A DNA stretch of 64,000 bases from an uncultured Chlamydiales bacterium (GTDB lineage: Bacteria > Chlamydiota > Chlamydiia > Chlamydiales > Rhabdochlamydiaceae), in the NCBI GenBank assembly GCA_963700985.1, contig OY969554.1, positions 512,001 to 576,000 on the forward strand, in the 5' to 3' direction. Made by a program: the position numbers and the translations under genes. The first letter of the stretch is position 1. Every line of letters starts with the position of its first letter. Shown here one piece after another: positions 38,410 through 39,803 of the stretch. A model generated the notes under the pieces. The model was given only the letters and a program-made list of their open reading frames with translations. It did not search any database and was not told the DNA's origin.

Positions 38410-38853
38410 ATGTCATCACCAGTCAACCCTCCGAATAATGGCGTGCCTTCTTGGTATATAGCAATTACGGGCGCTACCCCTCCTCCTGCACTTGAGGGAT
38501 CGCTTGATCCTAAGCAAGGAATGATCGACGGGATGAATGAGCTAAATAAGCTCATCTCAAAAATTGAGAAAGAATACGCAGAAGCTAAAGATAAGGCCGA
38601 ATTTCGTGCAAAGATGAAAGCGCCAGATGGATACCTCGCTGCAATTAAAAAACTAACCAACCAGTTGCACGTATGTAATAATGGTTTGCTTATCAGTAAT
38701 GATCGACACAATGAAAACAGCAGAATTATCGATTCTGTGGATAAAGTGGTAAGTGATATGTCAAATGCTGATACGGACGCCAAGTTTAGTGAATCAGCCG
38801 ATCAAGCACACGGCTGGGTGACTATCTTGTTTCTTGATTTTATGAAAAGTTAA
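38410..38853 (+). CDS. Hypothetical helical protein, paralog of 37835..38317
   Basis: Shared blocks as above; GGGAG RBS. Confidence 0.75.
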   Translation: MSSPVNPPNNGVPSWYIAITGATPPPALEGSLDPKQGMIDGMNELNKLISKIEKEYAEAKDKAEFRAKMKAPDGYLAAIKKLTNQLHVCNNGLLISNDRHNENSRIIDSVDKVVSDMSNADTDAKFSESADQAHGWVTILFLDFMKS

Positions 38854-38862
38854 TTTCAGTAT

Positions 38863-38897
38863 AAAAAAAATCGAGCAAGCCATGGACTTGCTCGATA
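38863..38897 (-). terminator. Rho-independent terminator
   Basis: A-run + ATCGAGCAAG-CCATGGA-CTTGCTCGAT. Confidence 0.7.
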
Positions 38898-38946
38898 CCT
38901 TGAAAGCGAAATAAGGCTTAGACTAGCGTCTTAGCCTTATATGTAA

Positions 38947-39069
38947 TTACTTACGAGCAGCAGACTTGCGTCTTGTTGCTGTTTTTTTGCGACGTACAGT
39001 CGATTTTTTCGCTTTAGATTTAGTAGACTTACGAGCTGTCTTTCTAGATGTTGCTCTTTTTTTTGCCAT
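38947..39069 (-). CDS. 40-aa histone H1/protamine-like basic protein (absent from ORF track)
   Basis: MAKKRATSRKTARKSTKSKAKKSTVRRKKTATRRKSAARK; 20/40 K+R; AAGGAG RBS; downstream hairpins. Confidence 0.85.
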   Translation of the reverse strand: MAKKRATSRKTARKSTKSKAKKSTVRRKKTATRRKSAARK

Positions 39070-39092
39070 GACATTTCTCCTTGTTATCATAG

Positions 39093-39147
39093 ATGAGAGG
39101 AGAGATGCAACTTCGGGTATTAACCCTTAAAGTCATTTCCTTCTCAT
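39093..39147 (-). promoter_or_regulatory. Long 5'-UTR hairpin upstream of the histone-like gene
   Basis: On -: ATGAGAAGGA..ATGACTT..GGGT-TAAT-ACCC..AAGTTGCAT..TCCTCTCAT; TGTATATT -10-like box just upstream. Confidence 0.55.
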
Positions 39148-39451
39148 ACCTTCAATATACAAATTCCAGAATTAAAAATAAAATATTTTTTATTTGACTC
39201 AATTTTTCAAACCAGAAACAAAATTCAATTTTCCTGCTTAGAAGTATACTAGAAGCCTTTTTTTAAGTTTTTAAGCTCGCTTAAAAAAATTATTTATAGC
39301 TCTAAAAATAAGTCTGATTTAACGCTCAACTAACCATTTTTTACTGAATTAGATTGTTCCAAAACTACGGAAACAACTGAAAATCAACTTGAATTACATT
39401 TGTTTCATGACCATTAACTGAATAATTACACCACCTAAACAGAAAAAGAGT

Positions 39452-39656: not shown

Positions 39657-39803
39657 TTAACGTTTTTTCTCTGGAGACTGTGGTTGCTGTTTTGGCCATG
39701 GCTGACCTTTTTGCTGTTGTTGTTGCTGCTGTTGCGGTTGTTGCTGGTGCTTCTGGCCTGGCTGACCTTGTCCTGGCTGATTAGGTGCTTTATTCTGTTT
39801 CAT
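39657..39803 (-). CDS. 48-aa Q/P/K-rich low-complexity peptide
   Basis: MKQNKAPNQPGQGQPGQKHQQQPQQQQQQQQKGQPWPKQQPQSPEKKR; AAGGAG RBS; own terminator. Confidence 0.7.
   Translation of the reverse strand: MKQNKAPNQPGQGQPGQKHQQQPQQQQQQQQKGQPWPKQQPQSPEKKR

Follow-up and report, generated by a model that had tools for sequence, protein, structure and literature searches.

The closest described counterparts of the gene reported here encode the chlamydial histone-like proteins Hc1 (HctA; PF07432) and Hc2 (HctB; PF07382, NF038052). Chlamydiaceae-type genomes have hctB flanked by pepA on one side and a holA-like gene on the other, and the hctB product carries a C-terminal RTAxxWR motif. To our knowledge, environmental chlamydiae have been described as mostly lacking hctB. 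Hc2 is reported to bind and condense DNA, and also to bind RNA (PMC2848022). Hc2-like proteins of Protochlamydia, Bordetella (BpH1), and Burkholderia are, like the protein discussed below, described as repeat-only, basic, and encoded at loci unrelated to hctB, so proteins of this type have appeared repeatedly; those of betaproteobacteria are ~150–230 aa in length, and BpH1, a dispensable protein, is expressed during exponential growth (PMC2848022). One Rhabdochlamydiaceae symbiont is described as having neither hctA nor hctB, yet as forming dense nucleoid-like bodies, and was proposed to be either unable to pack chromatin or equipped with "a yet undescribed mechanism" (10.1101/2024.11.28.625222). 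In C. trachomatis, nucleoids reportedly still condense upon knock-down of both histones (PMC13317200). A further parallel is offered by animal sperm protamines, which are likewise small (3–10 kDa), enriched in Arg, and of proposed H1-type descent, but contain up to 80% Arg as opposed to 20% in our protein (PMC11607694); the likeness is an analogy only.

The window, a stretch of 64,000 nt from a 2.07-Mb genome (G000) assembled as a single contig, contains on its minus strand (38947..39069) a CDS for a 40-aa protein built almost entirely of K, R, A, T, and S (K12 R8 A7 T6 S5 M1 V1), an assignment based on translation, orthologs, and pN/pS. Lys and Arg make up 20 of the 40 residues and Asp and Glu are absent, giving a computed mass of ~4.6 kDa and a charge of ~+19.5 at pH 7. 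Translation and inspection of the flanking signals bear out the preliminary description of an ORF of this length with 50% K/R, no acidic residues, a ribosome-binding site (RBS), and a terminator. That description had also called the ORF unannotated; the exact sequence is indeed absent from the protein collection, as are those of 10 of 10 orthologs, an absence that may only reflect the filtering of low-complexity proteins. The peptide has no match in Pfam, NCBIfam (neither PF07382 nor NF038052 reaches its cut-off), or PDB, and a protein database search returned no candidate. Its look-alikes in the protein atlas are short basic proteins without names, with HC2 appearing at 0.86, which serves as a lead only. 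DdbA was rejected as an identity because that protein is reported at ~18 kDa (PMC8343073).

The 40-aa protein resembles Hc2 in its K/R/A/T composition (common to its orthologs and Chlamydiaceae-type Hc2), its lack of acidic residues, its spacing of two K/R per 4–5 positions with A, T, V, or P as filler, its TARK and TVRK words, and a repeat-driven variation in length among orthologs, some long members of which pass the Pfam cut-off. It differs in being 40 rather than 154–261 aa long, in having more Arg and no RTAxxWR C-terminal domain, in lying beside nitroreductase and permease genes instead of pepA and the holA-like gene, and in having a sigma66-type rather than a sigma28-type promoter. A sigma28-like box lies upstream of hctB in L099–L121, and not upstream of the 40-aa gene. 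With Hc1 the protein shares the character of the basic, K/A-rich tail; it lacks the N-terminal dimerisation domain (PF07432), and hctA is a separate gene in this genome (G000:1835353), adjoining an RNA methyltransferase gene and yajC.

The hctB position is likewise occupied. At G000:367883-368050 (L176), a 53-aa protein is encoded beside the holA-like gene and fabI; it keeps the C-terminal motif as TAEGW and has no repeats, while pepA is directly followed by an rluA-like gene. The TAEGW pattern occurs in 69/80 relatives, and among 30 such loci fetched, two were chance matches, one was that of G000 itself, and 27 encode proteins of 43–88 aa, whose median of 57 aa compares with the 154–261 aa of Hc2. 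Since the gene at this position (L176; L149–L178) retains the Hc2 C-terminal motif without the repeats, hctB looks reduced rather than absent. The 40-aa gene was rejected as an hctB ortholog on the basis of locus, C-terminal motif, and promoter, and, given a separate hctA and a separate gene at the hctB position, it represents a third locus. Among the relatives, hctA was found in 63/80; at the loci examined the usual site lacks it in G003, G095, and G074 (L300, L302, and L303), and in G004 it is reduced to a 54-aa basic tail (L301:2671-2835). All four of these genomes keep the short basic gene.

Other small basic genes were observed in the same genome and in related ones. G000 encodes a 90-aa H1-like protein with its own terminator (G000:C1:1272674-1272946, minus strand) and a 62-aa protein (774426-774614, minus strand); the former was considered as a candidate hctB and rejected because its neighbours do not match. 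Other chlamydial families have short Hc2-like genes of their own (54–97 aa), in L132, L134, L140, L141, L144, and L146 (family f3) and in L133, L142, and L145 (f31), at other loci and with other promoters and terminators.

Direct protein search is nearly blind to orthologs of so short and repetitive a protein, detecting them in 2/60 relatives, so we searched by synteny from the neighbouring permease gene. The stretch upstream of this gene was obtained from 54/80 relatives (best match of at least 63% identity, with the 5' end intact) and from G005, giving 55 loci within the family. Forty of the 55 contain a basic ORF of 31–120 aa (median 39 aa; ≤55 aa in 35/40) with RBS, -10 box, and terminator in common, among nitroreductase, PAP2/PPIase, and amino-acid-permease genes. 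The gene is absent from the remaining 15, of which 10 are cut by a contig end and five are full 4-kb stretches; none of these 15 has the terminator, and in two cases the gene is present on another contig of the same genome. When all GTDB genomes were scanned at the DNA level for nothing but the terminator, 37 loci were identified, 36 of which have the gene directly upstream (35 whole, one cut), and the same element is present in both Rhabdochlamydiaceae and Ca. Acheromyda records. Thus the gene is real and conserved. In six disjoint close pairs pS is 0.14 and pN 0.039, a pN/pS of ~0.28 in which pN is biased low, because pairs were picked at ≥78% identity; as judged from these pairs, the ratio shows purifying selection. 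Together with the intact conserved ORF, the RBS and terminator, and a recurrent TATATT box and 5' hairpin, it indicates a conserved, stand-alone gene that is likely translated.

In sister families (f5, f10, f19, f27, f33, f34, and f43) the equivalent locus encodes repeat proteins of 82–197 aa. These long forms have PAP2, nitroreductase, or permease neighbours, an identical -10 box and RBS, and a terminator stem that is mostly identical. Whole genes outside the family that were chosen by the terminator and not by HC2 score are all long (13/13, 82–173 aa). Of 10 long proteins scanned, three exceed the 40 bits required by Pfam HC2 (L126, 57.3; L148, 46.3; L262, 41.6), and none reaches the cut-off of the NCBIfam Hc2 model (best 42.7 vs 135). 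The orthologs form a length continuum in which the short forms grade into proteins of 82–197 aa with scores on Pfam HC2. This gradation lends support to the preliminary description of a minimal Hc1/Hc2-like protein that likely condenses the nucleoid. By parsimony, the long forms are probably ancestral. Shorter proteins contain more Arg (rho -0.69 between Arg fraction and length, n=73), a correlation that is overstated because kin are not independent. The family shows K/R autocorrelation peaks at lags 4–5, of which the 40-aa copy has a weak one at lag 5 (0.2).

We consider it probable, at roughly two chances in three, that the 40-aa polycation belongs, as one of the short members, to an Hc2-like family of variable length at a third locus, and that it helps condense the nucleoid of the elementary body (EB). 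As a disordered polycation translated from a short, hairpin-protected mRNA, it would bind DNA (and RNA) without sequence specificity, and would neutralise the charge of the DNA backbone and compact DNA in the EB in the manner reported for Hc2 (PMC2848022). Expression may be high, if hairpins capping both ends stabilise the mRNA, and its timing may be late and possibly Euo-repressed, by analogy and from a weak Euo-like tract. The protein could then supply the repeat polymer that is missing from the family's hctB-position protein. The low-complexity likeness to Hc2 may be convergent, and the role may be redundant, as the genome also has hctA and the 90-aa H1-like ORF; the knock-down result in C. 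trachomatis likewise calls for caution.

Because Hc2-like proteins outside the Chlamydiaceae are already known, what is new here is the third locus and the miniaturisation. A gene of 31–55 aa, too small for the usual gene-calling thresholds, is a concrete candidate packer in genomes where hctA and hctB are reported missing. The natural length series of 31–197 aa also raises the question of the minimum length at which a bacterial protein can condense DNA, and the shift toward Arg with shortening parallels the trend from histone H1 to protamine. We found no publication on this locus in the mostly open-access main texts searched; supplementary annotation tables might name the long forms "HC2."

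The short gene is framed by conserved signals, all on the minus strand. An RBS (AACAAGGAG, 39077..39085), common to the orthologs, lies 7 nt before the ATG, and is preceded by a predicted 5'-terminal mRNA hairpin (39093..39147) that is also predicted in most orthologs, with variable inner sequence; in 50/72 parsed UTRs it has z < -2 against mononucleotide shuffles. The predicted sigma66-type -10 box TATATT (39154..39159) is kept in orthologs, and only one sigma70-family factor of G000 exceeds its cut-off. An A-tract/T-tract over the -35 region (39180..39195) bears a weak likeness to the Euo consensus of Waddlia, useful as a lead only (PMC4989314). Matches to that consensus average 11.7/15 in the promoters and 10.5–10.9 in shuffles, a weak difference, and at least 12/15 positions match in 35/64 promoters compared with ~8 in shuffles (PMC4989314). 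A scan with the promoter profile did not place hctA among its top 30 sites and yielded no clear late-gene regulon. Downstream are a predicted 3'-UTR hairpin with a GCTA loop (38911..38940), recurrent in orthologs, and a predicted intrinsic terminator (38863..38896) with a 12-pair stem (9 bp conserved), a TCCATGG loop, and T8. The transcript as a whole has a fold z of -6.2.

Orthologs share the sequence of the terminator stem: in a hand-picked alignment (40/74 sequences) the stem is 100% paired, with three pairs changed on both sides. In most orthologs its loop reads CAGGG, complementary to a CCCTG just 3' of the stop codon. In the synteny set, in which three of 41 loci have no parsable terminator, CCTG and CAGG are both present in 18/38 loci, both absent in 17, and represented by the loop word only in three; CCTG also occurs in 31/35 pattern-found loci, though it was not part of the search pattern. 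Pairing in the CCTG/CAGG helix reaches 87%; its two-sided changes rest on single sequences, and L282 and L283, outside the alignment, provide one more matched change. Such complementarity hints at a pseudoknot, or else an alternative fold, with a possible effect on stability or termination; the top of the stem would have to open for it. Both halves of the CCCTG/CAGGG pair are lost in the window copy, in G003, and in L044. We also observed that the palindromic loop TCCATGG (window 38880-38886) is found in G000 and G003 and, separately, in L044, each with the upstream CCCTG lost.

These UTR elements bear on the possibility that the protein is mainly an RNA-binding polycation, which would coat mRNA or ribosomes and dampen translation in the EB, its UTR structures setting its own dose. 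Post-transcriptional control is indeed suggested by the CCCTG/CAGGG pairing and by a terminator stem whose sequence is unusually well conserved from family to family, and Hc2 is reported to bind RNA better than Hc1 and to repress translation more strongly (PMC2848022). However, a length range of 31–197 aa arising by gain and loss of repeats fits no fixed ribosomal pocket, and Rfam 15 gave no match at its gathering score, nor any leader match. We regard RNA binding as unlikely to be the principal role; it is compatible with, and not exclusive of, nucleoid condensation by the same polycation.

A bolder version of the condensation hypothesis would make the gene a bacterial protamine: a shrunken, Arg-gaining gene missed by gene callers that serves as the main EB condenser in a lineage where hctB has lost its repeats and hctA is sometimes gone, with ARK[S/T] sites reversibly methylated by the core chlamydial DOT1-like enzyme or by SET for condensation and release, and with dose set through the 3'-UTR pseudoknot. 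Taken as a whole, this scenario seems doubtful to us.

Part of it overlaps with the proposal, made in the preliminary description, that the peptide may be the substrate of SET or DOT1-like enzymes encoded nearby, in a bacterial chromatin-marking system; on this view, lysine methylation at ARK[S/T] would tune compaction of the nucleoid. The window contains two SET genes, which are both SET genes of the genome, and one DOT1-like gene, all above Pfam cut-offs. The family's abundant ARK[S/T] words, with T or S following ARK in 84/100 internal cases (T 64, S 20), make the protein a chemically plausible lysine-methyltransferase substrate. Histone H3 carries TARKST at residues 6–11 and AARKSA at residues 24–29. 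The first of these words occurs in our peptide at residues 11–16 (39022..39039, minus strand) as an S variant of the repeat unit TARK; as for the second, RKSA and AARK are both present at the C-terminus, as previously noted, but overlap in reversed order, and AARKSA itself is absent. TARKST is unique in the six frames of the genome and arises in 0.15% of 300,000 composition shuffles (p 0.0015). We reject this p-value as a sign of H3K9 mimicry, because composition shuffling is the wrong null for a family built from TARK-type repeats; the proper null is the repeat grammar.

The reading of TARKST as an H3K9 mimic fails on conservation. Of the 60 non-redundant orthologs, 4 have TARKST, 10 have TARKS, 16 ARKS, 19 TARKT, and 33 TARK. 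Same-genus relatives with the locus have TARKST in 0/4 and TARKS in 3/4, the latter count favouring methylation at ARK[S/T]. TARKT is found in 22/73 family proteins and 12/23 Chlamydiaceae-type Hc2 proteins, and TARKST in 1/23 of the latter. As the orthologs and Chlamydiaceae Hc2 use the same words, TARKST likely reflects an incidental change from T to S in the repeat unit, and selection for H3K9 mimicry or for a substrate role appears improbable. The histone-mimic angle is thus the weak part of the finding.

Genomic association does not strengthen the case for methylation. SET genes occur in 76/80 and DOT1-like genes in 65/80 family genomes, and they are found no more than 20 kb from the small gene in 10 and 15, respectively, of 20 genomes, with about ten genes between; these genomes were selected for the length of their contigs once the positions of SET and DOT1 were known. 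But in the same 20 genomes other neighbours are linked as often (rluA 11, FKBP 11, pyrG 11, smr 15, pfp 15, sua5 17), so we attribute the linkage to background synteny of housekeeping neighbours and reject a specific tie between the peptide and these enzymes. The DOT1-like methyltransferase gene itself (window 48724-49401, minus strand) is pan-chlamydial, present as a single copy in 255/300 genomes of the order, Chlamydiaceae-type ones included, and occurring in families where the small-gene locus was not seen; with this query it was not found in G074, G067, and G006, which have the small gene. Its product has a weak match, of 29 bits where the cut-off is 200, to a model of an archaeal protein-lysine methyltransferase, and eukaryotic DOT1L is described as targeting H3K79, not K9 (PMC10117894). 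The literature is split on methylation of Hc1 by SET proteins: cpnSET is reported to bind Hc1 and Hc2 and to methylate Hc1 (PMC3980110), whereas NUE is described as secreted and as leaving full-length Hc1 unmethylated (PMC2904774). Methylation of the 40-aa peptide is possible, though the motif gives it no support, and a dedicated substrate role strikes us as improbable.

Much less probable is a secreted histone-tail decoy that sequesters host writers or readers of H3K9/K27: viral histone mimics are reported to exist, and the window copy has a six-residue identity with the ARKS-type H3 tail, but the motif is not conserved, the orthologs are uniform polycations resembling cytoplasmic Hc2, and the gene occupies a fixed housekeeping locus, where it evolves under purifying selection. 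Equally remote is a functional structured RNA with an incidental or untranslated ORF, which the strong transcript fold and UTR elements whose sequence is better conserved than that of the coding part would favour and the lack of an Rfam match would allow, but which fits poorly with intact frames, a conserved RBS, ~50% K/R in 73 sequences, the pN/pS of 0.28, and an ORF retained in the window copy where the 3' pairing is lost.

Several other small ORFs lie around the locus. A 48-aa Gln/Pro-rich ORF (window 39657-39803, minus strand), which has an RBS as well as a terminator stem resembling the one at the basic gene, has no Pfam match and is kept in G001 and G003 (L005 and L004). A second family of basic peptides, 22–31 aa long and ending in W-x-W or C-x-W, is encoded near the same locus in relatives (L009:2981-3055, L013:2956-3024, L015:639-707, L027:3253-3324, L044:1203-1295, and L048:2743-2838). 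Between the nitroreductase gene and the small gene are two plus-strand genes (window 37835-38317 and 38410-38853) for proteins of 147–160 aa without a known family; in same-genus relatives their place is taken by genes of comparable size that are not similar to them. Finally, in G003 a tandem array of ~45–50-nt units lies upstream of the small gene (L004:480-900).
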